Shown: positions 191 to 15,196, numbered from the stretch's first letter. The stretch is DNA of 40,035 nucleotides from Promethearchaeota archaeon (GCA_019057795.1 JAHLWS010000036.1:1-40035); one strand, 5' to 3'. Made by a program: numbers and translations. The notes: a model not told the origin generated them from the letters alone.

Positions 191-3067
191 ATGGTAGAAA
201 TAAAACAAATTAGTGCACATTCGGAGAATATTGAAGAAGTCGTAAATGCAATGAATGTTTCAATTAAAACTGGTTTATCTACATCAGAAGCAGCAGCTCG
301 ACTTGAAAGATATGGAAAAAACGAATTAATAAAGGAAAAAGGAAAAACTGCTCTAGAAATTTTCATAGGCCAATTTAAAAGCTTTCTTGTTTATTTATTA
401 CTTTTTGCGATTGCCATCTCAATTGTGATTGGAATGTGGGAAAGTGGCCAACCTGGTGCCGAAGTATGGTCTTCAGAATATACAGATGCTATTGTGATTG
501 GCACTATTTTAATTGCCAACGCAGTTTTGGGGTTTTATCAAGAATATCAAGCAGAAAAATCAATGGAAAGTTTAAAAAAACTTGCGCCCCATTTTGCTAA
601 GGTTCGTAGAGATGGTAAAGTTAGTGAAATTGCCGTAGAAGATGTAGCACTAGGAGACATTATCCTTTTTGAAGACGGGGATAAATTTCCAGCAGATTTA
701 AGGTTAATAAAAGAATTTTCACTTTACGTCGATGAGGCAATTTTAACCGGGGAATCTGCACCTGTAAAAAAACAATTAGATATCGTAGATGAAAAGATGA
801 TTCTAGCGGATAGAATTAACCTTGGATACATGAACACGATAATCACGAGAGGAAATGGAGAAGGAATTGTAATTGGGACGGGGATGAATACCGAAATAGG
901 AAAAATAGCTGAAAGTTTGCAACAAGAAGTAGTAGAACCTAGTCCCTTTCAAGTAGAAGTAAATCGATTTGGAAAATTATTAGGAATAACGATTCTATTT
1001 ATTTGTGCTGGCGTATTTATCACAGAACTAATTATTATACTACTTACAGAAGGTTTAGATTTCCAAGCCGAAGAAATAGAGCATATGATCGACGCGTTTA
1101 AAATTGCTATAAGCTTAGCTGTATCGGCAGTGCCTGAAGGTCTCGTTGTTGTTATTACGGTGGTTTTGAGTATAGGTATGAAAAAAATGGCCGCAAAAAA
1201 TGCTTTGGTTAGAAAGTTAACGGCTGTGGAAACGCTAGGACGTGTTAATGTCATTTGCTCAGATAAAACAGGTACCTTGACAAAAAACGAGATGACAGTA
1301 GTGAAAATGTATTTAAACGAAAAAGTGTTCGATGTAGATGGCGTAGGATATAATATTATAGGGGATATCAAAGAATTTGGAAATCCTGTTAACATGAATC
1401 CTGATCTTAAGCGGTTTCTAGAAGTTTGTTTGTTTTGCAACAACTCTAATGTAAATATTCTCGACCAAAAAACGGGAGAAGTTAGTGTCGTTGGTGACCC
1501 TACTGAAATCTCCATGAAAGTCTTAGCGTTGAAAACGAAACTTAACGAATCTTTTGAAAAATTAGACGAAATTCCTTTCGACTCTGATCGGAAGATGATG
1601 AGCGTAATTGGTAAAGTAGATGGTAAAATCGTTGCTTTTATAAAGGGAGCTCCAGATATAATGATGAGAAATGCTTCTCATGTATTATTAGATGGCGAAA
1701 GCAAGTTAATTGAGAACGCAAAAGATAAAATATTAAACCAAAATAACGAATTTGCTAAAAATGCTTTGAGAGTTCTTGGAGTAGCATATAAGGAGTTAGA
1801 GCCCGGATACGATCTCAATGATGTAGAGAAAGATTTCACCTATATTGGTTTAGTAGGAATTATTGATCCCGCCCGAGACGAAGTTAAAGACGCAATCAAA
1901 GAAGCTAGAATGGCGGGTATCCGTACGATCATGATCACGGGAGATCATAAAGTAACTGCCATAGCAATCGCACAACAAATTGGTCTAACTGAATCAGATG
2001 ATGCAATTACAGGAATAGAATTAGAAGAAATGACTGAAGACGAATTGCTGGAAAGAGTTAAAACCGTTGATGTTTTCGCAAGAGTAACTTCAGAACATAA
2101 ACTAAGAATTTTGAGGAAACTAAAGGATCTCGGCTTAGTGGTTGCCATGACCGGGGACGGGGTTAACGATGCTCCAGCTGTAAAAGGTGCTCATGTAGGC
2201 GTGGCAATGGGTTTAAAAGGAACTGAGGTCACTCAAGAAGCTTCAGACATGATTCTTATCGATGATAATTACGCAACTATTGTAAACGCAATCGAAGAAG
2301 GTAGAGGGATATTTGAAACAACCAAGGGTTTCTTCCGCTATATGCTTTCAACGAATTTTGACGAAATTTTTCTGATTTTAGTAGCATTTATTATTATGAA
2401 ATTATGGAGTGATGTCTTCTTAGGACCACCTGTTACACCAATCTTGATCCTCTGGCTCAACATAGCAACGGATGGTATCCCTGCGATGGTTTTAGGGCTA
2501 ACTCCAACAGACCCCGATGTCATGAAGAAGCCTCCGAGAAAAGGTTTTACATTGTTAAAAGAAATAAAAGGTCCTGTTCTACTACTAGGAATTTATACAT
2601 CAATTACGGATATTACTCTTTATATAGTTCTTTGGACAGTTCTTATTCCTACTTGGAGCAATCCCAGTTCTATTGGGTTTGATCCAGCTTTACTAAGCGG
2701 CACAACAATATTAGGGGTTCATTACACAGCAACCGAATACGCTATAGCATTAGCGCAAACGGTATTATTTACAAATTTAGTGATATGTGAATTATTGTTC
2801 GTTTTCACATGTACTTCTAATATTAAACCGTTTTACCTCTTTCCCAACAAGCACTTATTTTGGGCTACAGGACTTTCTCTCGCTTTACAACTTTTAATCC
2901 TTTACACACCAATGGCTATCGCTTTTCACGTCGTACCTTTAACACAATGGTATCACTGGGTAACTCTCTTTCTTGCCGCATTTAGTGTTTCTGTCGTCGA
3001 CGAACTAAGAAAATATAGAATAAGATTGAAACTTAGAAAAGATCCTAATTATTTATTAAAAACTTAA
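191..3067 (+). CDS. P-type (P2A, SERCA-like) cation-transporting ATPase, probably Ca2+
   Basis: Phosphorylation motif DKTGTLT; actuator motif TGES; PEGL in M4; KGAP; TGD; GDGVNDAPA; M5 STNFDE; M6 LNIATDG; about 10 hydrophobic segments. Confidence 0.95.
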   Translation: MVEIKQISAHSENIEEVVNAMNVSIKTGLSTSEAAARLERYGKNELIKEKGKTALEIFIGQFKSFLVYLLLFAIAISIVIGMWESGQPGAEVWSSEYTDAIVIGTILIANAVLGFYQEYQAEKSMESLKKLAPHFAKVRRDGKVSEIAVEDVALGDIILFEDGDKFPADLRLIKEFSLYVDEAILTGESAPVKKQLDIVDEKMILADRINLGYMNTIITRGNGEGIVIGTGMNTEIGKIAESLQQEVVEPSPFQVEVNRFGKLLGITILFICAGVFITELIIILLTEGLDFQAEEIEHMIDAFKIAISLAVSAVPEGLVVVITVVLSIGMKKMAAKNALVRKLTAVETLGRVNVICSDKTGTLTKNEMTVVKMYLNEKVFDVDGVGYNIIGDIKEFGNPVNMNPDLKRFLEVCLFCNNSNVNILDQKTGEVSVVGDPTEISMKVLALKTKLNESFEKLDEIPFDSDRKMMSVIGKVDGKIVAFIKGAPDIMMRNASHVLLDGESKLIENAKDKILNQNNEFAKNALRVLGVAYKELEPGYDLNDVEKDFTYIGLVGIIDPARDEVKDAIKEARMAGIRTIMITGDHKVTAIAIAQQIGLTESDDAITGIELEEMTEDELLERVKTVDVFARVTSEHKLRILRKLKDLGLVVAMTGDGVNDAPAVKGAHVGVAMGLKGTEVTQEASDMILIDDNYATIVNAIEEGRGIFETTKGFFRYMLSTNFDEIFLILVAFIIMKLWSDVFLGPPVTPILILWLNIATDGIPAMVLGLTPTDPDVMKKPPRKGFTLLKEIKGPVLLLGIYTSITDITLYIVLWTVLIPTWSNPSSIGFDPALLSGTTILGVHYTATEYAIALAQTVLFTNLVICELLFVFTCTSNIKPFYLFPNKHLFWATGLSLALQLLILYTPMAIAFHVVPLTQWYHWVTLFLAAFSVSVVDELRKYRIRLKLRKDPNYLLKT

Positions 3068-3232: not shown

Positions 3233-4246
3233 ATGGTAATTGATATAACGGACGGGATAGAAAGCGGTAAGGTAATTGTAAAAGTTTTAGCAACCAATAC
3301 AACCTCTATTACTTTATTAACCGAAAAAAGATTTAATGGAAAAGTTATCCAACCAGGTGTTACGGCTAATAGAGCTGTAGGCGAGCATGGGTTAGCAATG
3401 AGTATTATTGTAGAAGATAATGGCGAGAGACACCTTTTATTATTAGATAGTGGAGGTTTATCTCAAACTATAGTTGAAAATAGTAAGCAATTTGGAGTGA
3501 ATTTGAATGACGTTGAGAAATTTGTTTTAAGTCATGGACATTTTGATCATTTTGGCGGGTTAGCGGGAGTAATTCCTTTATTTAATAAAGGTACCGAATT
3601 TGTTTTGAATCCTAATTGCTTTAATCAAAATTATGCGGCAATTATGAAATCTGGAGAAGTAATTCCTGCTGAAGATTTAGGAGCTACATTGCGAACGCTA
3701 GAAAAAGAGGGGAAACTTAGTATAAGTAAAAAATTACCTATACTTAGTAAAAATATGATAAATAATCTAGTAGATCAACATGGAATTAAGCTAATAGAGA
3801 CAAATGAACCTGTAAAATTATATAAAGGTATCGCGACAAGCGGAGAAATTGAATTATTCGATAAAGAAGAAATTACTAAAGGAATCTACATAATGAAAAG
3901 TAGAAAGGAATTTGAAACAAACTATTTCAGAGACGAAACATCTATTTATATTAACGTAAAGGATAAGGGTTTAGTTGTCATAACGGGGTGCGGACATTGT
4001 GGCATAATGAATACGATAAAACACGGTCAAAAGTTAACGGGGATCGACAAAATTTACGCTGTGATTGGGGGATTTCACGAAGAATGGAACCCAATTGAAA
4101 AAATTGAGGAAAAAGTAAAATATTTTGAAGAATTAAATCCGGAAATAATTTGTGGTATGCATTGTACAGGTTTTAATTTTAACAAACTCATGTCTCGACA
4201 TCCCTCTCATACTTTAGGGATCGTAGGAACAGAATTTCATTTATAA
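3233..4246 (+). CDS. Metallo-beta-lactamase fold hydrolase (COG1237-like, dihydropteroate-synthase-like MBL family)
   Basis: GEHGL, LLDSG, SHGHFDH (HxHxDH), TGCGHCG, GGFH and MHCTG motifs. Confidence 0.85.
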   Translation: MVIDITDGIESGKVIVKVLATNTTSITLLTEKRFNGKVIQPGVTANRAVGEHGLAMSIIVEDNGERHLLLLDSGGLSQTIVENSKQFGVNLNDVEKFVLSHGHFDHFGGLAGVIPLFNKGTEFVLNPNCFNQNYAAIMKSGEVIPAEDLGATLRTLEKEGKLSISKKLPILSKNMINNLVDQHGIKLIETNEPVKLYKGIATSGEIELFDKEEITKGIYIMKSRKEFETNYFRDETSIYINVKDKGLVVITGCGHCGIMNTIKHGQKLTGIDKIYAVIGGFHEEWNPIEKIEEKVKYFEELNPEIICGMHCTGFNFNKLMSRHPSHTLGIVGTEFHL

Positions 4247-4272: not shown

Positions 4273-5361
4273 TTATAAACTCTCTTCAATGTACTTAAAA
4301 AATAAGCCAATTCCTATAATTTTGAATGTATCTTGAACATTTATATATTTTAATGCTGAGGTTTCAATGAAAAAACTTTTCAATTTTTTTGCTTTTTCTA
4401 ATCCCTCCTCTTTGGTTATTTCCCTTTGATCTTCTAAATCAATTTTATTTCCTATAAGCACAAATGGGACGTTTCCTAATTTCTTCTGAGCATCTTCGAG
4501 CCAGAAATCTATAGCTTCATCAAAAGTCTCTCTTCTGGTAACATCGTAAACGATAAAAGCACAATTTGCTCCGCTATAATACTCGTGTCTAACACGCTTA
4601 AAAAAACTTTGCCCGGCAAGGTCGTATACAAGAAATTTGATAATATCGTCTTTGAAGCCTTGAACATGAAATTGTTGAGTTGATATCGAAATACCTAAAG
4701 TTGGTCGATAATCGATAACATCCTCCTTTTTTAAAAATTGATTCACTAGCGTAGTTTTACCTACGGCTGCTGAACCTAATACAATTAGTTTAAAGAGTTT
4801 TTCTATTTTCTTAGGTTTCCTAAATTGATGTGCTGTGGTCACACCATTTATCATAGTTTTTGGTTCGTTGATCGAAAACTTGTCTAATCCTAAGGAAAAT
4901 GTATCGTGAATATTTAAATCGGGGATTTCTAAAGTATTAAATTTAAAATCGAAGCTATCTTCAAGCAATTGAGCTATTTTCTCAACTACGAGGTAAGCAA
5001 TAGGGAAGAGCTTGTTTAAATTTGTTTCATAATCGCAAATTAGTAATAGTATAGCATCGGATCCCGCTTCTAAGTAAATAATGCGATTATCCTCAGTTTC
5101 AAATGAACCAGTACCATAATGACCGATTTGATATTCTAAGCTAATCTTACTCAAAAGGTTTTCTACCAATGCAGTAAAGGCGCCGTATACATCTTCCGTT
5201 TCTTTCTCGTCTTTAGCTGTACTATCTAATTTTCCATATTTAGTCATTAAAAGTCCTTGGTTTGAATATAAAAAGGCGACAACAATATCATCTCGCGACT
5301 CTACAAAGTTTTTTAAGAGAATCCGAAGATTTTCTTCTTTTGTTATAGCTTTAGATGCCAT
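4273..5361 (-). CDS. Roadblock/LC7-like N-terminal domain fused to a Rab-like small GTPase
   Basis: C-terminal G-box motifs GSAAVGKT (G1), YRPTLG (G2), DLAGQ (G3), NKID (G4), ETSAL (G5), plus Rab-like YYSGA. The N-terminal ~135 aa have a roadblock-like pattern (VVAFLYSNQGLLM...IIYLEAGSDAILLLIC). Confidence 0.85.
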   Translation of the reverse strand: MASKAITKEENLRILLKNFVESRDDIVVAFLYSNQGLLMTKYGKLDSTAKDEKETEDVYGAFTALVENLLSKISLEYQIGHYGTGSFETEDNRIIYLEAGSDAILLLICDYETNLNKLFPIAYLVVEKIAQLLEDSFDFKFNTLEIPDLNIHDTFSLGLDKFSINEPKTMINGVTTAHQFRKPKKIEKLFKLIVLGSAAVGKTTLVNQFLKKEDVIDYRPTLGISISTQQFHVQGFKDDIIKFLVYDLAGQSFFKRVRHEYYSGANCAFIVYDVTRRETFDEAIDFWLEDAQKKLGNVPFVLIGNKIDLEDQREITKEEGLEKAKKLKSFFIETSALKYINVQDTFKIIGIGLFFKYIEESL

Positions 5362-5527
5362 AAATAAGATATAACTTAAATTTAATTAATATAATGTTCC
5401 TTTTTTTTTATTGAAATTTAGGACTCTATTTGATTAAAAATACTACTCGTTATATTTAAATTTATTTTATCCCTTTATTACCTATTATAATTCTTAATTT
5501 TAAATTGACTTTTTTGAGATAAATATA

Positions 5528-6226
5528 ATGAATATTTCAGAACTATTGAAAAAAAAGCTTGAATCAAACCAAACGGTACTTACAGAATTTGAATCGAAGG
5601 AATTGCTTAAAGAGATTGGAATTTCTGTTCCAGACCAAAAATTAACCTCTACTAAAGAAGAAACCGTTTCAGCCGCAAAGAGCATTGGTTTTCCGGTTGT
5701 TTTAAAGCTCATGGCAGAAGATATTGTCCACAAGTCAGATACGGGAGCGGTTAAGTTAAACATAAAAAACGAGGATGAAACTGCTAATGCGTTCGAAGAA
5801 TTAATGAATATTCCTTCCCAAGCCGAGAAATTGATTAGCGTACAAAAAATGGCCAACGAACCAATAACGGAATTAATTTTAGGGATGACTACTGACGCTC
5901 AATTTGGACCTGCGCTAATGTTTGGAATTGGAGGTATTTTAGTTGAACTTTTAGAGGATGTAAGTTTCCGAATTGCTCCAATTACAGAATATGATGCTCG
6001 GGAAATGATTAAAGAAATAAAAGGATTTCCAATACTAGATGGATATCGAGGAAAACCAAAAGCCGACATAGATGCGATAGTAAAAACGCTATTGAAAGTA
6101 TCGGAGCTCGTCATAAAACACGAAGAAATATACGAAATGGACCTAAACCCCGTTTTTATCTACGATAAAGGGTTAATTTGCGTAGATGCGAGGATTATTC
6201 TGAAAAAACCCGAAAAACAAGATTAG
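5528..6226 (+). CDS. acdB: ADP-forming acetate/acyl-CoA ligase beta subunit (ATP-grasp)
   Basis: LTEFESKELL, GFPVVLK, HKSDTGAVKL, FGPALMFGIGG and EMDLNP...VDARI are typical of ACD beta / ATP-grasp_5. Confidence 0.88.
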   Translation: MNISELLKKKLESNQTVLTEFESKELLKEIGISVPDQKLTSTKEETVSAAKSIGFPVVLKLMAEDIVHKSDTGAVKLNIKNEDETANAFEELMNIPSQAEKLISVQKMANEPITELILGMTTDAQFGPALMFGIGGILVELLEDVSFRIAPITEYDAREMIKEIKGFPILDGYRGKPKADIDAIVKTLLKVSELVIKHEEIYEMDLNPVFIYDKGLICVDARIILKKPEKQD

Positions 6227-6406
6227 TCTTGTACCTTTTTTAATCAATTTTTTGAACATTTTATAGAAAATTTTTTATGCACATTTGTTAAATTAATTCA
6301 AATATTCATACCAGCTAACATAAAAGAAGTAATTTTATATTCAAATTACGCGATTATTATTGTAATTATTCTTATTGAAAAATATTATTATTTTAAAAAA
6401 ATTGAT

Positions 6407-9400
6407 TTGATGTTTATGAAAAATTTAAATAAAAAAAAGAGAATGATAACTTGCTCAGTTCTGTTATTTAGTCTTTTATCGATAACAATATTTACAAATT
6501 TCAATTTCGAGTCTCTTTTTTACAAAGACGATGCGAATAAAGACGATTTTACAAATTTTCCAAAAACTTCTGATTCTCTTCCTTCTTTTAAAGGGACGGG
6601 AAATAAAGTTAATATTACTTTACATCAATCTATTTTAAATACATCAACGATATCTTTTTCTAATTTAGATAATGAAAATACTTTTCAAGAACCAGCACCA
6701 AAATTTCAGGGTTATAATACATCTAATATAAATATTGATGTAGATGACATAAATGCTCCAAATAAAACTATTTTGTATGAAGATCAAACAAGCGCACGTA
6801 TAATTGATGCTGTTAATAGTCATTATATTTCATTTAAAGCTAGGGGTGTGGGTTATATAGAAAACATATCCATCTATTTAAATAGAACAGCACCACTCCT
6901 TACAAGACTTATAGTATCGTTGTATAATTCTGAGTTAGACGGTTCTATACCAAAACCGCTTAATCTTGTATACGCACTTCCAATAGTTGATTTGTCAGTA
7001 ATCACAGGAGATTCACCTCATTGGCATAATATGACAAATATAGGTTCTTTATTCAATTGTTCAGAAACATACAATGATACTTTTTATTTAAATATTGAAG
7101 AGATTGGCTCTGGCGTTGATATTGAAATATATGGTGAATTAACTTCAATGGGTGGAGATGGTTCAAATGATAATTATGTATTAGATAGTGGAGAAAACGA
7201 ATTTAATATTGCAGGATCACTTGTAGATGCCGCAGTAGAAATTGATTTTGTTCCATTGAATAATACTCCTAAACCCTCTCAAATTGGACTTGAGATAAAT
7301 AACAAAAGTGTAAATGATGTCAATTTTCAAAAAGGAAAATATATTATGACTGAAGGCATCTTAAAAGATTTATCAGGCACTATTGATTTCAATGTATCTG
7401 CAGATTGGTGGGATGTTGCTTGTAATGTCTCTAGAGTTCAAATCAATTACACTAAAACGGATTTAAGAGCAGATTCTAGCTTTGAAGTTTTAGGAAACGG
7501 ACAAGATGTTTTGTGGAATGTGACAAAACCAGGCGGATTGAATTATTTTGATTCGCGGTTCAATAATTATACGATAAATTTCACCATTTCTTCCAGATGG
7601 GAGAATATTGAAGTGTGGAATGGGGGTACCAATAAAACAGATGACATAAAACCAAATCCTCTCAATAATTATAAAGACATACAAGTGTTTAATGCCGGAA
7701 ATGGTACTCATTGGTTTTTAAACGCCACATCTTCCAACCTTCTTGAGGATATAAAAAAATATGTTGGTACAATGTCAGCAGCAGATAATTTTAATTATAC
7801 CGATCTTGTTCGTTTTAACGGAACTTTTTCTAGCTCTATTAGCGATGGAAGTATTAACCTTAGCGTGTATAGCCCATTAATATTAAATGATCATTTGAAC
7901 TATACATTTATTAACAGTTCTTTTATTTCAGGTGATGACATATACTTTGGTGATTGGGATATATCTGAAAAGGTAACCAAATACGGAAAGTTTCGAATAC
8001 TAACTCAATGGAATAATGGCACTGATGCGGGTTTCTTTAGAGATAACATAACCATATTTGCAGAAACAAATCTACTTATTGATCAGCCCTCCCAGAACAC
8101 AACGTTCAATTCTAGCACCATTTTCAATGTCACTATAATCTATAACGATACAGGACAAAGTCTGGATATTTCTGACGGTGATATTTACTATAAAATTAAC
8201 GCTGGAACTTATAGTTCTGTAAATGAAAGCGTAAAATACATCGGTTCGGGAAAATATAACATTACTTTTGATTGTAATAACACAGAATTTAATTATGGTC
8301 TTAATACGATCTCGATTAGAGCAAATAACACTTACTATCACAATCAGACTGACACGCTATATTTTTTCATTTTAGGAGAAACAAGCCTTATTAGATCGTT
8401 TCCAAAAACGTATAACTTTGATTCTGGTGAAACATTTAATGTTACTCTTTATTTCAACGATACTGTTAAAAATATAGGAATTGATGGTGCTGATGCAGTA
8501 GATATTTATGTAAACGATAGTGATTATACTCCCTTAGATTTTTTTGATTACGGAAATGGATATTATAATCTTACTGTAAATTGTAGCGATTCTATATTTA
8601 ACGATTACGGTTCGTTTGATGTAAAGGTTGACGTTAATAAAACTAATTATTACAATCAAACTACTTCGTTTGTTATTAGTATTACGGGAGAAACTAGTTT
8701 AGATGTCTCAGTTATGCCGGTAAGGAAGTTTTATTATTCAACCGAGATTTTTAACATAACGGCATATTTTAATGATACGGCGAGAAATCAAGGTATTAAT
8801 GGCGCAACAATAGATATTGACGTGGACGGAAGCGTTTATTCTCCTCTCAGTTGGTTTGATTACGGTAATGGGTATTATAACATTAGTGTAGATTGTAGCG
8901 ATCCTATTTTCAGTAATTACGGATCTTTTCAAATGAGAATTAACGCCACGAAATTAAATTATTACAAAAGCGTTGATTCCTCTTTTGAATTAATAATTGG
9001 AAACACGACTTTAACTAGGCTTTCACCCCCTTTAAATTCGCCTTATGTTTATGGAGATAGTTTTAATATTACAATTTATTACAGAGATGTAGTAAAAGAT
9101 TCCGGAATTACTGGTGCTACGATAGAATATTCTATTGACGGAAGTTCATATAAAACTGATAATATAGATCCAAACGGAAATGGGAATTACAATATTACGA
9201 TTAATGTAGACGATACTGACTTTGGTAGTATTTTTGGATTTAGAACTATTATAATAAACGCAAGTAAAACCAATTACAACAATGTATCAATAGATTATGT
9301 ATTTCATAGACAAATTAATACTACAATCGAGCCAGACAATTTTAAAAACTTAGGTAGCGTTGAACGAGGGTTAAACGTATCGTTTAGATTCAATTATTCG

Positions 9401-12037
9401 GATGGTACTGGCAAACCGATAACGCAAGCCGATTGGTCAATAGTTAACAATTCCGACGGTTTTGTTGCTCATCTTGAAAATTTAGGAGAGGGAAATTATA
9501 CTATGCATTTAAACACTTCGTTTGTAACTGTAAGCGGTTCCTTTCAATTGTTTGAGTTCAACATATCTTCAATCGGAAATGAAACACAAATTATCACATT
9601 GCAAGTAGACATTCAAATTATCCACACTCAACTTCAAGATGTAGCTTGGAATTCTTTAATAGCAAGAAATTCAGGGTTAAATCAAACAGTCAATTTTTAC
9701 TTTAATGATACTACAAATAATCAGCCGATTCTTGATTTAACAACTCTAAATGTCGATGTTAAAGACTTTGACACGGGTTTACTTTGGGACACGGGAGACT
9801 TTAATTGGAATTTAAATAATCCTTTAAACGATGGGAATTACGAGTTAGATGTTAGTACTAATAATTTGAATTCTGGATGGTACACATTGCAAATTGAGGT
9901 ATCGAAATTTCCGAACTATAATACAAGTATAATTTATACTCAATTTTATCTTAGAGGAAACTATACATCATTTAATATTAATTCTATTTCTGATCTTGGA
10001 GGCGAAGGGTTGCTAACTCCTGTAGGAAACAATTATTCCGCGTTTATCGAGAGAAATATATATGTAGCCTTTAATTTAACGGATAACGAGTTTAACAACG
10101 AATTAATTACTGGAGATGCAAATTCATATGTAATCACTTATTACGAAATTTCAAATGCGACAAATCAAGGAACTACAACACATACCTTAACTTTTGACGC
10201 TAACACGGATTCCTATAATGGATATTTAACTACTTCAAGTTTAACTGTAGGAACATATGCAGTAAATATAACTGTTATAAAAACTAATTACGAAAATTCC
10301 GTTTTTAGTTTTAATTTAACTGTAAAACCTAGATTCAATGTGAGAATCTCAGTAGTTGATCCACCAACCACAGTTACTGCGGGTGATTCTTTTTTCATAA
10401 CTCTTGAAGCCGAATACTACAATGGAACCGATTGGTTACCTTTAATCGGAACAAATATTATATTAACTCCTTATTTTAACGGTATATCCTCAACTCCAAT
10501 AACTATTGCTACTAATGGTACGGGAATAGCTATTTTTGAAATTACAATTAGAAACGATGCTATAAACATGACTCTTCTAGTAGAAATACAAGTCAGTTAT
10601 AATCATTTAGCTGACACATTACAAATTTCAGATATTAGCATTATTCCGCTCACACCTGGTTTTACTTTTGAAGAACTGCTCCCTTATATCATAATAATCG
10701 GAGCTGTTGTTGCTCTTGCTGGTGGTTCTTTAGCAGTTTATCGTGGTGTAGTAGTTCCCAAAAAGAGAGAAAAACAACGAATATTGACTGAAGTTAAGAC
10801 TATTTTCGACGACGCAATTAATTTAGAACATATTTTAGTATTATACAAAGGAACTGGAACCTGTATTTTCTTTAAGTCATACGGTTCAGAACAAATAGAT
10901 CCTGAATTAATAGGAGGATTTTTATCAGCGGTTTCTTCATTTGGAAAAGAAATGAAGACTCAAGAAGCATTAAATGAGATTTCTTACGGCGATAAAATGT
11001 TATTACTAGCTGATGGAGAATATATACGAGTCGCATTAGTTTTAGGAAAAAAAGCATCCTTAATTCTCCGTCGTCATTTAAAAGACTTCATAAATACCTT
11101 TGGAAAAATGTTTAAAGATGACTTACCAAATTGGAGAGGGCAACTTAATCCTTTTAGGAATGCAGGTCTTATTGTCGATGAAATTTTGAACACTTCAATT
11201 ATTCTACCGCATCAGATATCAGATGACTTTTCGAGTGTTAAGGAATTAAAGAATCCCCACGCACGGGATGTATTAAAGGTCGCACATAGCTGTTGTGAAG
11301 AAACAGATAGAAGTTTCGTATTTATTGCAACATTACTCAAGGAAACATCTGAAAGAACTAATAAAGATACAGCAGAAATTTTTATAGGAATTAAGGAATT
11401 ACGGGACAGGAAAATCTTAATCCCAATAGAAATCTCAGCAATCGAAGCTCAACCAGTTTCTCAGCAAGAAATAAATCTTATTAATCAAAAAGTTACTTCA
11501 CTAACCAATTTATCAAACGAGGAAAAGCAAAATTTAGTGAATTTCTTAGCCGAATTAGATGCAATAGAAAGAGAAGCTTACCTTTCTAGCTTGACTAAAC
11601 AACATGAAATCGTCTCTGCCCCAATTAAAACTACTATAGGAACTATTATAGTTGATAATAAGAAATCTGCTATAAAAGGGGTTAAGGAGTTAAGCAAACG
11701 AGCTAAAATTGCGAAAGGAAAGAAGAATTATCGAAAAACAATTGAATTATATCAAAGCGCCGCTATGTTGGCTTCAAACTGGGAATTATCAAGTGAATTC
11801 GTTCAAATAGAGGAGCTTATTCGAAAAACTAAGATTGAAGATTTAAGCGTGAAAAAGAAGGATTTAGAAAAAGAGGCAAAAGATGCTGTTATAAGTAAAA
11901 ATTACGCTGAAGCCAGCGCGAAGTATAAGCACGCGTCTAAAATCGCGTCAGAAATTTTCAAACTAGGCGCTAGTGATATGACAAAAGAAGTCAAGAGATT
12001 AACCAAAAAAGCAAATGAATACGAAAAATTAAAATAA
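6407..12037 (+). CDS. Giant membrane-anchored surface glycoprotein: beta-rich repeated ectodomain, single TM, cytoplasmic longin/roadblock-like and helical domains
   Basis: Basic plus hydrophobic N-terminus (start may be the ATG at 6410 or 6416). About 1400 aa rich in N/T/S/Y with many NxS/T sequons and ~104-aa repeats. TM PYIIIIGAVVALAGGSLAVY followed by PKKREK. About 430-aa charged cytoplasmic region. Confidence 0.8.
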   Translation: MMFMKNLNKKKRMITCSVLLFSLLSITIFTNFNFESLFYKDDANKDDFTNFPKTSDSLPSFKGTGNKVNITLHQSILNTSTISFSNLDNENTFQEPAPKFQGYNTSNINIDVDDINAPNKTILYEDQTSARIIDAVNSHYISFKARGVGYIENISIYLNRTAPLLTRLIVSLYNSELDGSIPKPLNLVYALPIVDLSVITGDSPHWHNMTNIGSLFNCSETYNDTFYLNIEEIGSGVDIEIYGELTSMGGDGSNDNYVLDSGENEFNIAGSLVDAAVEIDFVPLNNTPKPSQIGLEINNKSVNDVNFQKGKYIMTEGILKDLSGTIDFNVSADWWDVACNVSRVQINYTKTDLRADSSFEVLGNGQDVLWNVTKPGGLNYFDSRFNNYTINFTISSRWENIEVWNGGTNKTDDIKPNPLNNYKDIQVFNAGNGTHWFLNATSSNLLEDIKKYVGTMSAADNFNYTDLVRFNGTFSSSISDGSINLSVYSPLILNDHLNYTFINSSFISGDDIYFGDWDISEKVTKYGKFRILTQWNNGTDAGFFRDNITIFAETNLLIDQPSQNTTFNSSTIFNVTIIYNDTGQSLDISDGDIYYKINAGTYSSVNESVKYIGSGKYNITFDCNNTEFNYGLNTISIRANNTYYHNQTDTLYFFILGETSLIRSFPKTYNFDSGETFNVTLYFNDTVKNIGIDGADAVDIYVNDSDYTPLDFFDYGNGYYNLTVNCSDSIFNDYGSFDVKVDVNKTNYYNQTTSFVISITGETSLDVSVMPVRKFYYSTEIFNITAYFNDTARNQGINGATIDIDVDGSVYSPLSWFDYGNGYYNISVDCSDPIFSNYGSFQMRINATKLNYYKSVDSSFELIIGNTTLTRLSPPLNSPYVYGDSFNITIYYRDVVKDSGITGATIEYSIDGSSYKTDNIDPNGNGNYNITINVDDTDFGSIFGFRTIIINASKTNYNNVSIDYVFHRQINTTIEPDNFKNLGSVERGLNVSFRFNYSDGTGKPITQADWSIVNNSDGFVAHLENLGEGNYTMHLNTSFVTVSGSFQLFEFNISSIGNETQIITLQVDIQIIHTQLQDVAWNSLIARNSGLNQTVNFYFNDTTNNQPILDLTTLNVDVKDFDTGLLWDTGDFNWNLNNPLNDGNYELDVSTNNLNSGWYTLQIEVSKFPNYNTSIIYTQFYLRGNYTSFNINSISDLGGEGLLTPVGNNYSAFIERNIYVAFNLTDNEFNNELITGDANSYVITYYEISNATNQGTTTHTLTFDANTDSYNGYLTTSSLTVGTYAVNITVIKTNYENSVFSFNLTVKPRFNVRISVVDPPTTVTAGDSFFITLEAEYYNGTDWLPLIGTNIILTPYFNGISSTPITIATNGTGIAIFEITIRNDAINMTLLVEIQVSYNHLADTLQISDISIIPLTPGFTFEELLPYIIIIGAVVALAGGSLAVYRGVVVPKKREKQRILTEVKTIFDDAINLEHILVLYKGTGTCIFFKSYGSEQIDPELIGGFLSAVSSFGKEMKTQEALNEISYGDKMLLLADGEYIRVALVLGKKASLILRRHLKDFINTFGKMFKDDLPNWRGQLNPFRNAGLIVDEILNTSIILPHQISDDFSSVKELKNPHARDVLKVAHSCCEETDRSFVFIATLLKETSERTNKDTAEIFIGIKELRDRKILIPIEISAIEAQPVSQQEINLINQKVTSLTNLSNEEKQNLVNFLAELDAIEREAYLSSLTKQHEIVSAPIKTTIGTIIVDNKKSAIKGVKELSKRAKIAKGKKNYRKTIELYQSAAMLASNWELSSEFVQIEELIRKTKIEDLSVKKKDLEKEAKDAVISKNYAEASAKYKHASKIASEIFKLGASDMTKEVKRLTKKANEYEKLK
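8050..10660 (+). repeat. Approximately 7-8 degenerate ~104-aa Ig-like repeats within the large protein
   Basis: Recurring FN(V/I)TxxxNDT ... GNGxYNIT ... NKTNY pattern starting near 8122, 8435, 8750, 9062, 9371 and 9680, with weaker copies further on. Confidence 0.7.
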
Positions 12038-12111: not shown

Positions 12112-13362
12112 TTAATCGGTAATTCCATTTTCTGTTATTGAGAATACAGCTTCTCCTTCGGGTAGATGAGGCGCATCAATCATTTTCGCTACTCTCTGCT
12201 CGCCTTTACCTTTTCTTAAATATACTCTAATTGTTGATCCATGAGCAACTATATTCCCTCCTGTCGCGACTGTTGGGTTTCCATAAAAAACATCAGGTTT
12301 TGATTGAACTTGATTTGTTACAATGACACATAACTCGGGGAAAATATCTGTTAAACGTAATAAATCGTGTAAGTGGGCATTAATAGTTTGTTGTCTGGTT
12401 GCTAACGTACCTCTACCTATATATTCGCTTCGAAAATGTCCAATTAAAGAATCAACTATTATTAGTTTAATGTTTTTCTCTTTAATAAGATTAGCAGCTT
12501 CTTTTATTAGGAGAATTTGATGATCAGAATTGTAAGCACGACCAAATATTATGTTTTTCAAAATCTTTTTGTAATCTAAATCAAGTCCTTCAGACATCTG
12601 TACTATTCTTTCAGGTCTAAATGTTCCTTCAGTGTCTATATACAATGCATTTCCATTGAGACCCCCATCTTCGTAGGGTAATTGAACATTTACACAGAGT
12701 TGGTGCGCTATTTGGGTTTTTCCGGTCCTAAATTCGCCAAAAAACTCAACAACGCATCCAGTTTCAATTCCACCTCCAAAAAGATCGTCGAGTTCTTGAC
12801 TACCTGTCGTAATTCTCGAAATATTTTTTCTGTACTCCCATACATCTTCAGCAGACTTGAAGCCGATTTTTAACTGGGCCATACTAGCTTTAACTAATTT
12901 AGCGGTTGTTTTATCTCCGAGCCCAGATTCATTTTGAATTATCTTTGGGGGCGTATAAGCGATGGACTCAAGGCTACTAAATCCAGCCTTAATTAGTTTT
13001 TTAAGCGTAGCTTCACCTACCCCAGGAAGCTTTTTAATAGCTTCTACACACATATTTGCGTCATTGATTATAACTTCATTACTATCTGAATCTAATTCTT
13101 CTTCTTCCATTTCATTTAATTCGATAATATCATCTTCATCTTCCTCTAAATCTTCAAAAATTTCTTCTACTTCAGATTCAAGTTCTTTTTCATTGCTTTC
13201 AGATTTTTCTTCGATTTCGTTTTTATCTATTTCGAACCGGGCAAATTTTAAATGGTCCTTGTAAATTTTGCCTTTAGTATGGTTTCTTTTACATTCTTTA
13301 CAGAAATAAGGCTCTCCATTCCCAGATTGGCCTCCATTATTAATTTCACTTGCTTTAGCCAT
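12112..13362 (-). CDS. radA: DNA repair and recombination protein RadA with N-terminal extension
   Basis: HhH LPGVG, FxxA polymerisation motif (FKSA), Walker [21 protein letters not shown], Walker [24 protein letters not shown]. Confidence 0.96.
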
Positions 13363-13675: not shown

Positions 13676-15196
13676 ATGCTAACGACAGTCAAGTTCCGCT
13701 TACAGCCAACTCCTTCACAGGAGCAAAAACTACACGAAATCTTTGCCATCTACAATAGAGTTAAACGAGCGGGATATAAACTCTATTTTACATTAAAAGA
13801 CATGGATCTTACTAAAACGGAACAAAGAAAGCTCGTTCAGCCCCGTTTAATGGAACTCTGTCAGAATAATCCCTACGTAAATAGCATCCTAATCGACTGT
13901 GAGACTAAGTTAGCCCAGCAACAAACATGGTACGAAAAACGCGAGAAATATCTAAAACTTCAAATAACTACGATTATTAAGATGGTTGAACAAATAAAGC
14001 AAAAAGATAAGAGAGATAGGCGATTAAGAGGGCTTTACTCCCATTTATCGTCTGTTCAGAATAAATTACTCGCTTTAAGACCTAAACCGGTCGTATTTGG
14101 CACGAAACAGTTATTTCGAGAGAGGATACTCGGTAAAATTAGCAGGGACGAGTTTAGAATTAGAAGGGACTCTTCTTTTTGTTGCGTGGGTAAAAGGCAA
14201 GGAATTAATCTGAATTTAAAAATCCTTCCTGACGCGACTCTTAGGGTTCGCATGTTTTCTAAGGAAAAAGGGAAGAAATGGTTAATAATTCCGTTTACTG
14301 CGAATTACAAGCAAGAGAAATGGTTTATAGAAATACTCGGTTTGGAATTATATCAAGTAGAAGTCGTGAGACGCTTTATAAAGGGTAGAGTACGATATTT
14401 CGCTCACATTTCTTACGAAATCCCCGAAACAGAAATGCGTTATGGCTTTGAACGCGGAGCTGTAGGGCTAGACATGAATTATAATTTTGTTTCTCTCTAT
14501 AACATTGACGAAAAAGGTAATTTCAAGAGTTATCACGAAATTAAGTTTAGAAACTTGCATTCATATCGTAAAAACAAGAGTACAGATTATATTAGTTATA
14601 AGATGGATAAGGTGGTTAACTATTGCGTTAATAAAAGGAAGGGACTGGTGATTGAAGACCTTTCCTTTGACCAAGAATTTTCTTATGGTAAAAAACGCAA
14701 TCGAAAATTAAGTAATTTTAAAACTTCAGCATTAACTTTATTAGAAAGAAAGTGCCTTAAAAAAGGTGTTGCTGTTAGAAAGGTACACCCAGCATACACA
14801 TCTTTAATTGGCAAGTATAAATATTCACGCTCGCGTAATTTATCTACTCATGTATTAGCAAGTTACGTGATCGCTCGAAAAGGTCTTGGGTTTAAGGAAA
14901 AGATTCCAACCCTTTATAAGCGGTTGCTTGCACAAGTCGGGGACGCCATAAAGCCCCGTTTGAAACCAAGCAGTCCCTACTATAACTGGGCTAAACTCCA
15001 CGATTTTTTCAAGTACAGTGGGATAACTTCCTTCAAGACTTCCGAAGTAATGAGAAAAGCGCTACAAATGAAGTATGTCTTGAACTCGGTGACGAGCGCA
15101 CAGCCTGATAACCTTAGGGCTGGTCTTTCCTCCAAGGGAAAGGTTGATAATTGGCATAAATTTTGGAATTTTATAGAAATTACCAATATTTTATAA
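13676..15196 (+). CDS. tnpB: TnpB-related RuvC protein (IS200/IS605/IS607 accessory family), zinc-finger-less type
   Basis: N-terminal TVKFRLQPTPSQ; VVFG motif; RuvC-I VGLDMN; RuvC-II LVIEDL; VHPAYTS; RuvC-III region STHVLASYVIARKG. Confidence 0.85.
   Translation: MLTTVKFRLQPTPSQEQKLHEIFAIYNRVKRAGYKLYFTLKDMDLTKTEQRKLVQPRLMELCQNNPYVNSILIDCETKLAQQQTWYEKREKYLKLQITTIIKMVEQIKQKDKRDRRLRGLYSHLSSVQNKLLALRPKPVVFGTKQLFRERILGKISRDEFRIRRDSSFCCVGKRQGINLNLKILPDATLRVRMFSKEKGKKWLIIPFTANYKQEKWFIEILGLELYQVEVVRRFIKGRVRYFAHISYEIPETEMRYGFERGAVGLDMNYNFVSLYNIDEKGNFKSYHEIKFRNLHSYRKNKSTDYISYKMDKVVNYCVNKRKGLVIEDLSFDQEFSYGKKRNRKLSNFKTSALTLLERKCLKKGVAVRKVHPAYTSLIGKYKYSRSRNLSTHVLASYVIARKGLGFKEKIPTLYKRLLAQVGDAIKPRLKPSSPYYNWAKLHDFFKYSGITSFKTSEVMRKALQMKYVLNSVTSAQPDNLRAGLSSKGKVDNWHKFWNFIEITNIL

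Follow-up and report, generated by a model that had tools for sequence, protein, structure and literature searches.

Roadblock and longin modules form dimers and act on GTPases of the Ras superfamily as GTPase-activating proteins (GAPs), guanine nucleotide exchange factors (GEFs) or anchoring platforms; examples are MglB-MglA, Ragulator-Rag, TRAPP, Mon1-Ccz1 and Fuzzy-Inturned. In Asgard archaea, small GTPases number in the dozens, as do roadblock or longin proteins, and the two kinds are rarely encoded together (PMC10933270; 10.1101/2020.10.19.343400); because of this the GTPases can almost never be paired with their regulators; such pairing was listed as an outstanding question (PMC4917890). 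Fusions of roadblock and longin domains to GTPases are known in these organisms, and architectures in which a roadblock precedes the GTPase have already been described (PMC10933270; PMC4917890). The present analysis concerns a DNA stretch of 40,035 nucleotides from a Promethearchaeota archaeon (GCA_019057795.1 JAHLWS010000036.1:1-40035), hereafter 'the window', which is the whole of contig C36 in G000, a 4.95-Mb, 87-contig Lokiarchaeial genome bin. In this stretch, the gene of a roadblock-Rab-like GTPase lies close to that of a giant surface glycoprotein, designated the 'receptor', whose tail carries a longin domain. The original prediction, made from the sequence alone, had proposed that the GTPase reaches the membrane by docking on the receptor tail, thus forming a receptor-GTPase circuit. 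We show that the two genes belong to an ancient Lokiarchaeial island of four genes, the two others encoding a P2-type ATPase and the acyl-CoA synthetase subunit AcdB.

Gene neighbourhoods of comparable content have been reported. The Asgard operon of a LAMTOR1-like roadblock protein, a Rab-like GTPase and a DENN protein (Liu et al., 10.1101/2020.10.19.343400) is likewise a conserved neighbourhood that associates a roadblock-superfamily protein with a Rab-like GTPase. Unlike that operon, the island has no DENN gene, has its roadblock fused to the GTPase, and adds a membrane glycoprotein, AcdB and a P-type ATPase. The actinobacterial conservon CvnA-D and Group 1 Rup also bring together a membrane sensor, a roadblock protein and a small Ras-like GTPase (Wuichet and Sogaard-Andersen 2014, PMC4316618), and these neighbourhoods have been read as a receptor-coupled GTPase switch in prokaryotes (PMC4316618). 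In the island, however, there is neither histidine kinase nor c-di-GMP output, the candidate sensor is longin-tailed, and the GTPase is Rab-like rather than MglA-like. A literature search returned no description of the four-gene island or of the receptor family, and no paper naming Lokiarch_08060, the locus tag of the Lokiarchaeum ortholog.

In 19 genomes, a single contig carries the orthologs of both the GTPase and the receptor, with acdB in the middle; these genomes belong to eight genera and two families: genera g1, g12, g13, g14, g16 and g18 in the family of the window (f1), and genera g2 and g9 in a second Lokiarchaeial family (f2). Protein identity between f1 and f2 is 40 to 45%. The ATPase gene is always upstream, its ortholog adjoining the GTPase gene or acdB in both families, and acdB is always immediately upstream of the receptor gene. 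In f2, the order is ATPase, GTPase, acdB, receptor; the last three genes are on one strand with spacers of 72 to 231 bp, and the ATPase gene is on the same strand, separated from the GTPase gene in G032 by an opposite-strand open reading frame (ORF) of 244 aa. In f1, the GTPase gene is inverted, and some genera also carry an inserted gene for a metallo-beta-lactamase-fold protein. A variant arrangement was observed in genus g18 (locus L052, G068:C123), in which the receptor gene is flipped with respect to acdB and an additional gene of 357 aa has been inserted, the GTPase, acdB and ATPase genes remaining within 5 kb.

As a synteny control, regions of about 53 kb around the island in G017 (49 ORFs of at least 100 aa) and in the window (35 ORFs) were compared with the matching regions of the closed f2 genomes G038 and G032. 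The only genes in common between the f1 and f2 regions were the four island genes, which indicates that the island is a synteny remnant in reshuffled surroundings and not a case of general gene-order conservation. The check across Lokiarchaeia that the original prediction had called for thus came out in favour of conserved linkage. In a maximum-likelihood tree, all island GTPases and a few relocated copies formed one clade (100/98), separate from paralogous roadblock-GTPases; since they form one clade, the island position of the GTPase gene is ancestral to f1 and f2. The island was found in two families of one order only. The features of the island in the window, with the evidence for each, are the following:

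191-3067, plus strand: P2-type cation-transporting ATPase (Ca2+-ATPase-like), first island gene; Pfam E1-E2_ATPase and Cation_ATPase_N/C.
3233-4246, plus strand: metallo-beta-lactamase-fold protein, a lineage-specific insertion outside the conserved island; Pfam Lactamase_B, E 3e-8.
4273-5361, minus strand: roadblock-Rab-like GTPase fusion, 362 aa; Pfam, fold matches and the ortholog clade of f1 and f2.
4957-5361, minus strand: Roadblock/LC7-fold domain of the GTPase, aa 1-135; AlphaFold2 (AF2) model, Foldseek and profile match to 9jue.
4807-4956, minus strand: linker of the GTPase, aa 136-185, with a conserved L-E-I-P-D-L motif; alignments A1 and A4.
4312-4806, minus strand: Ras-superfamily Rab-like G domain, aa 186-350, G1 to G5 intact; Pfam Ras and PDB Rabs.
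5362-5527, no strand: divergent intergenic region between the GTPase gene and acdB; AT-rich block kept in genus g1 (alignment A5).
5528-6226, plus strand: acdB, 232 aa, stand-alone ATP-grasp_5 beta subunit; Pfam ATP-grasp_5, E 3e-76.
6407-12037, plus strand: giant single-pass surface glycoprotein (the receptor), 1876 aa; single-copy ortholog in 108 of 151 genomes of the order.
6512-10666, plus strand: extracellular region of the receptor, aa ~36-1420, sequon-rich and fast-evolving; sequon count and identity.
10670-10744, plus strand: transmembrane helix of the receptor, aa ~1422-1446, followed by a basic stretch; hydropathy and sequence.
10820-11203, plus strand: membrane-proximal longin domain, aa ~1472-1599, the best-conserved part of the receptor; VIA and Foldseek.
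11204-11659, plus strand: middle tail, an alpha/beta module and short helices; AF2 secondary structure.
11660-12034, plus strand: C-terminal helical-repeat domain, aa 1752-1876, TPR- or MIT-like; predicted local distance difference test (pLDDT), VIA and a sub-cut-off Pfam MIT match.

Pfam Ras covers residues 191-348 of the GTPase (E 4e-41, 140.7 bits against a cut-off of 21.6), and a sequence search of the PDB gave Rab14, Rab2, Rab4, Rab11 and a Thorarchaeota Rab as the closest solved relatives of the G domain. The P-loop G1, the switch I Thr, the G3 motif D-x-x-G-Q with its catalytic Gln, the G4 motif N-K-x-D and the G5 motif S-A are invariant among orthologs (alignment A4). Cysteines are present at positions 109 and 267 only, none of them near the C-terminus, and the C-terminal Cys prenylation motif of eukaryotic-type Rabs is absent. 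The protein is soluble and devoid of a lipid anchor, and it looks catalytically complete.

Its first 135 residues had no match in Pfam, where Robl_LC7 (PF03259) gave none even at E 10. The AF2 model, built on a 24-sequence alignment, has the order helix-strand-strand-helix-strand-strand-strand-helix with a core pLDDT of 87 to 96, and Foldseek matched it to 9jue (Roadblock3 of Prometheoarchaeum MK-D1), 1j3w, 3t1s, 6hjm and 7f8m (E 2e-7 to 1e-5; 2e-7 to 1e-4 with LAMTOR included, with template modelling (TM) scores by target of 0.6 to 0.75). The fold relatives include MglB, a Thorarchaeota roadblock and LAMTOR subunits, and a weak profile match to 9jue (E 0.002) agrees with the fold result. Beyond residue 150, the linker has low pLDDT. 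An L-E-I-P-D-L motif was observed at residues ~140-150 of this otherwise variable linker, its Pro147 being invariant across f1 and f2; it may be a docking or packing element.

A second roadblock-GTPase copy, 72% identical, is present in G000 at the end of a 13.9-kb contig (C27:11954-13072, minus strand; locus L026:4955-6073). It has no adjoining acdB, its neighbour being a 119-aa ORF with a weak GTPase match, and it groups in the tree with other species of the genus. Because the G000 bin is 7.5% contaminated, it may belong to the contig of a co-binned relative rather than be a true paralog.

In working principle, the closest system would be Rag (Gtr) on Ragulator (EGO), in which a GTPase with its own roadblock and no lipid anchor is held by a membrane-attached roadblock/longin scaffold; for the island, such holding is proposed. 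The differences are that the island roadblock is N-terminal and not C-terminal, that the G domain is Rab-like by sequence, and that the scaffolding done by the lipidated LAMTOR1 complex would fall to the tail of a transmembrane glycoprotein. The position of the roadblock and the Rab-like G domain place the island GTPase outside Rag-Ragulator membership. With MglA-MglB and the Asgard roadblock proteins (9jue, 7f8m), the island shares the MglB/roadblock fold of the N-terminal domain, and in those systems roadblock dimers regulate a Ras-like GTPase. Unlike MglA-MglB, its roadblock is fused in cis, its GTPase keeps the Gln of D-x-x-G-Q, and no island gene encodes a separate MglB-like protein.

The receptor, which starts in the public record at the ATG at 6416 (1873 aa), begins with a hydrophobic segment. 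Its ectodomain of ~1,385 residues holds 72 N-x-S/T sequons, compared to 30.7 +/- 4.6 in shuffled sequences, and the tail holds 2. This distribution, with the basic stretch that follows the helix, shows that the sequon-rich side is extracellular and the tail cytoplasmic. No Pfam or NCBIfam model matched the ectodomain or the tail, except for a sub-threshold MIT hit, and the ESM Atlas returned Promethearchaeota clusters only, all without names. The cytoplasmic tail is ~430 aa long and was modelled by AF2 with a mean pLDDT of 80; the membrane helix continues into the model.

Directly after the membrane helix, the model shows the order strand-strand-helix-strand-strand-strand-helix. In VIA, this domain matched Sec22b (1ifq) with Z 12.8 (root-mean-square deviation 3.1 over 126 residues), AP sigma and Fuzzy LD1 with Z 11 to 12 (10 to 12 for the set of AP sigma, Fuzzy LD1, Ykt6 and TRAPP subunits), and a Lokiarchaeota longin, 8yqg, with Z 10.3. 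Foldseek concurs on a longin fold. The sequence of the domain matched no curated longin family of Pfam or NCBIfam, and no PDB sequence. It is the most conserved part of the receptor, with 59 to 61% identity between f1 and f2, compared to 17 to 21% for the ectodomain. Relative to the longin platforms on which it superposes with Z 10 to 12.8 (TRAPP Bet5/Trs23, Mon1-Ccz1, Fuzzy-Inturned, AP sigma, and the SNARE longins Sec22b and Ykt6), the receptor differs in having a single longin, without Pfam family match, fused to the transmembrane helix of a giant surface protein, and neither a SNARE motif nor a tri-longin architecture is established in it.

The remainder of the tail is less readily classified. 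Residues ~1600-1750 (pLDDT ~80 to 88) were barely covered by fold searches, and the middle module may be winged-helix-like, as far as its secondary structure goes. The C-terminal repeats (pLDDT 89 to 95) matched TPR proteins and the Calpain-7 MIT in VIA with Z ~10 to 11, which is under the convincing level for helical repeats; Pfam MIT gave E 0.002 (18.5 bits against a cut-off of 30), and the PDB sequence search a short match to a designed TPR. They thus weakly resemble TPR or tandem MIT units. In f2 receptors, ~200 extra C-terminal helical-repeat residues, absent in f1, were observed (L021:3699-5612, L022:13420-15333, L029:9370-11331).

Several statements of the original prediction were borne out by these results. 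The two genes are indeed about 1 kb apart (the gap is 1046 bp, with acdB as its sole gene), both profilin-fold-like modules are real, one as a roadblock on the GTPase and the other as a longin on the receptor tail, and the GTPase lacks a lipid-anchor motif. That both families are abundant was also correct: G000 has 62 small-GTPase ORFs and ~17 to 20 ORFs with the longin-type domain of the receptor. The caveat that the proximity could be due to chance stood on this genome and fell across genomes. In G000, 4% of the ORFs of at least 150 aa lie within 1.1 kb of a GTPase gene; among 16 other longin-type ORFs, 2 were within this distance compared to 0.64 expected (P = 0.13), and at 3.5 kb the excess was marginal (P = 0.04, uncorrected). 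On this genome alone, therefore, proximity is not beyond chance.

Associations of longin-type domains with GTPases or membranes exist elsewhere in G000. The same longin-type domain is fused to an Arf-like GTPase in a 294-aa protein (C87:100068-100952, minus strand), and the gene of a 271-aa tandem-longin-like protein (C11:36658-38041, minus strand) ends 11 bp from a small-GTPase gene. Both cases count in favour of a link between receptor and GTPase, as does 8yqg, which is a solved Lokiarchaeota roadblock-longin fusion protein. A longin-type domain was also observed at the C-terminal end of three multi-pass membrane proteins (C49:109673-111898, C87:86950-88602 and C38:79373-80692, with ~12, 10 and 6 hydrophobic segments, respectively), which points to membrane-anchored longin domains as a wider class in G000.

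The most likely mechanism can be proposed on the analogy of the systems above. The membrane-fixed longin domain, probably as a dimer, would be a docking or regulatory platform for small GTPases, and the island GTPase, where kept, would be its best candidate client. The roadblock of the GTPase would pair with the longin platform or stack on it, and the G domain would in this way reach the membrane with no need of prenylation; in lineages that have lost the island GTPase, the platform would serve one of ~60 other GTPase paralogs or a different partner. The parts of this proposal that we infer are binding as such, the direction in which it acts (GEF, GAP or anchor) and a signal from the ectodomain. 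We put the probability of a functional coupling of the island GTPase and the receptor at about 0.4. The stricter version, in which the longin directly recruits and regulates the island GTPase as a receptor-anchored, prenylation-free switch of the Rag/Ragulator kind, ancestral to f1 and f2, appears unlikely.

A number of observations weigh against a dedicated receptor-GTPase pair. Among 151 genomes of the order, a receptor ortholog was found in 108 and a GTPase ortholog in ~60 (62 at E 1e-60, a few weaker paralog matches among them), so that the two do not co-occur consistently. In genus g12, the receptor is present in 46 of 53 genomes and the GTPase, at the ortholog level, in 5, all of them receptor-linked (a tally of 6 includes a paralog match at 1e-61 in G145). 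Many of the sampled genomes are incomplete and single absences prove nothing, yet the contrast between receptor and GTPase is large. ATPase, acdB and receptor genes are found together without the GTPase gene in Lokiarchaeum GC14_75, in G030 and in the closed 6.0-Mb genome G051 (L048-L051). The last of these has a receptor of 2581 aa and two copies of the GTPase ortholog at ~0.046 and 4.97 Mb; as they lie megabases away from the island, the GTPase gene was relocated and duplicated there. In genomes with an unlinked GTPase, or with none, the longin domain shows the same degree of conservation, and its main constraint is therefore independent of the island GTPase. The GTPase gene is always between those of the ATPase and AcdB, never directly beside the receptor gene, so that the GTPase could have its partner elsewhere in the island; in genus g1 its gene is divergently transcribed. 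No neighbouring GTPase, acdB or ATPase gene was seen for the longin-tailed giants from other Asgard classes, for the paralogs of G000 and G023 or for the ortholog in a fourth family (f4), so that the pairing is not general to the domain family. A profile-profile comparison of the roadblock and tail alignments showed no relation (probability 0.5%). The prediction of a 1:1 complex between tail residues 1462-1685 (A3) and the full GTPase (A4) scored 0.00, was run with no controls and weighs neither way. The proposed circuit is partly supported, by conserved linkage and a single GTPase clade; it is weakened by the absence of the GTPase, be it from the island or altogether, in over half of the genomes that carry the receptor, with the longin conserved regardless. 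The best explanation of this pattern is that the receptor is the constant core of the island and the GTPase an ancestral member that was often lost or moved.

The main alternative is that the island has been conserved without any contact between GTPase and receptor, as a result of co-expression or of historical retention. The roadblock would then act in cis or in homodimers, like the C-terminal domains of Rag or like MglB, and the longin would serve for dimerisation, sorting or other partners. We regard this as quite possible. It fits with the dispensability of the GTPase for receptor retention and longin conservation, with the divergent GTPase gene of g1 and with the longin-tailed paralogs that have no GTPase neighbour. 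The island also holds AcdB, which looks like a housekeeping protein, and an ion pump that has no evident link to GTPase or receptor, and in MK-D1, GTPase genes are generally outside operons with roadblock or longin genes (Tran et al., PMC10933270). Such an absence of contact is harder to reconcile with the survival of these four genes alone through reshuffling across two families, which is difficult to explain without selection for linkage. The GTPase gene, moreover, held its place despite an inversion and an insertion, and the partnership of roadblock and longin domains with GTPases is well established in many systems.

A functional tie of the GTPase to the P-type ATPase or to AcdB, for instance in the regulation of ion pumping or of energy metabolism, instead of to the receptor, is improbable. 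The GTPase gene is invariably placed between those of ATPase and AcdB, in f2 it lies 72 to 87 bp upstream of acdB, and at loci L033, L034, L040 and L056 it is seen with the ATPase gene or acdB and no receptor gene in view. These four contigs, however, end beside the pair, so that the receptor gene may lie beyond; the ATPase-acdB adjacency survives without the GTPase gene; and no roadblock-GTPase is known to act as a regulator of P-type ATPases or acyl-CoA synthetases. That members of two abundant families lie close by mere chance, for which the 0.64 neighbours expected for 16 longin-family genes could speak, is effectively excluded by the linkage of the same orthologous pair in 19 genomes, which span eight genera and two families, at 40 to 45% identity and with unrelated flanks.

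The two remaining island proteins belong to known families. AcdB is a stand-alone ATP-grasp_5 protein of ~230 aa (Pfam, 256 bits), and NCBIfam models of archaeal acetate-CoA ligase match the beta part of AcdB. The genome has no other stand-alone beta subunit of ADP-forming acyl-CoA synthetase: the one further beta copy is part of a fused alpha-beta enzyme of 723 aa (C60:17133-19304), and at least 11 stand-alone alpha-subunit genes (Succ_CoA_lig) are found elsewhere. With one stand-alone beta for at least 11 alpha subunits, AcdB looks like a shared housekeeping subunit, one beta presumably being used by many alphas. For the ATPase, the top NCBIfam models were Ca2+ ATPases of the PMR1 and SERCA types, both under the equivalog cut-off.

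A homolog of the metallo-beta-lactamase-fold protein is present at the same site in g1 and in G075 (g16), and is absent from f2 islands. The intergenic region between the GTPase gene and acdB could be a promoter. None of the sequencing runs on record as RNA holds the stretch. A single run could be RNA, though it is probably DNA; its five short contigs fall on parts of the GTPase gene and acdB, none of them bridging genes, and it says nothing on expression or co-transcription. Downstream of the island, RadA (12112-13362, minus strand) follows the receptor gene in f1, including Lokiarchaeum GC14_75, and not in f2, and a 506-aa ORF with an IS605 OrfB-type helix-turn-helix, TnpB-like, lies at 13676-15196 (plus strand).

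These results bear on how GTPases without an anchor reach membranes in Asgard cells. The island offers one concrete and evolutionarily supported candidate pair, a membrane-held longin and a roadblock-GTPase, and the lineages without the GTPase provide a natural 'knock-out' comparison. If there is no binding, the island still defines a conserved, single-copy Lokiarchaeial surface glycoprotein with an unusually conserved cytoplasmic tail. If binding is shown, prokaryotes would have a simple equivalent of GTPases anchored by a scaffold, such as Rag on Ragulator; and if docking is direct, the pair would be among the few Asgard GTPase-regulator pairings that can be read from the genome.

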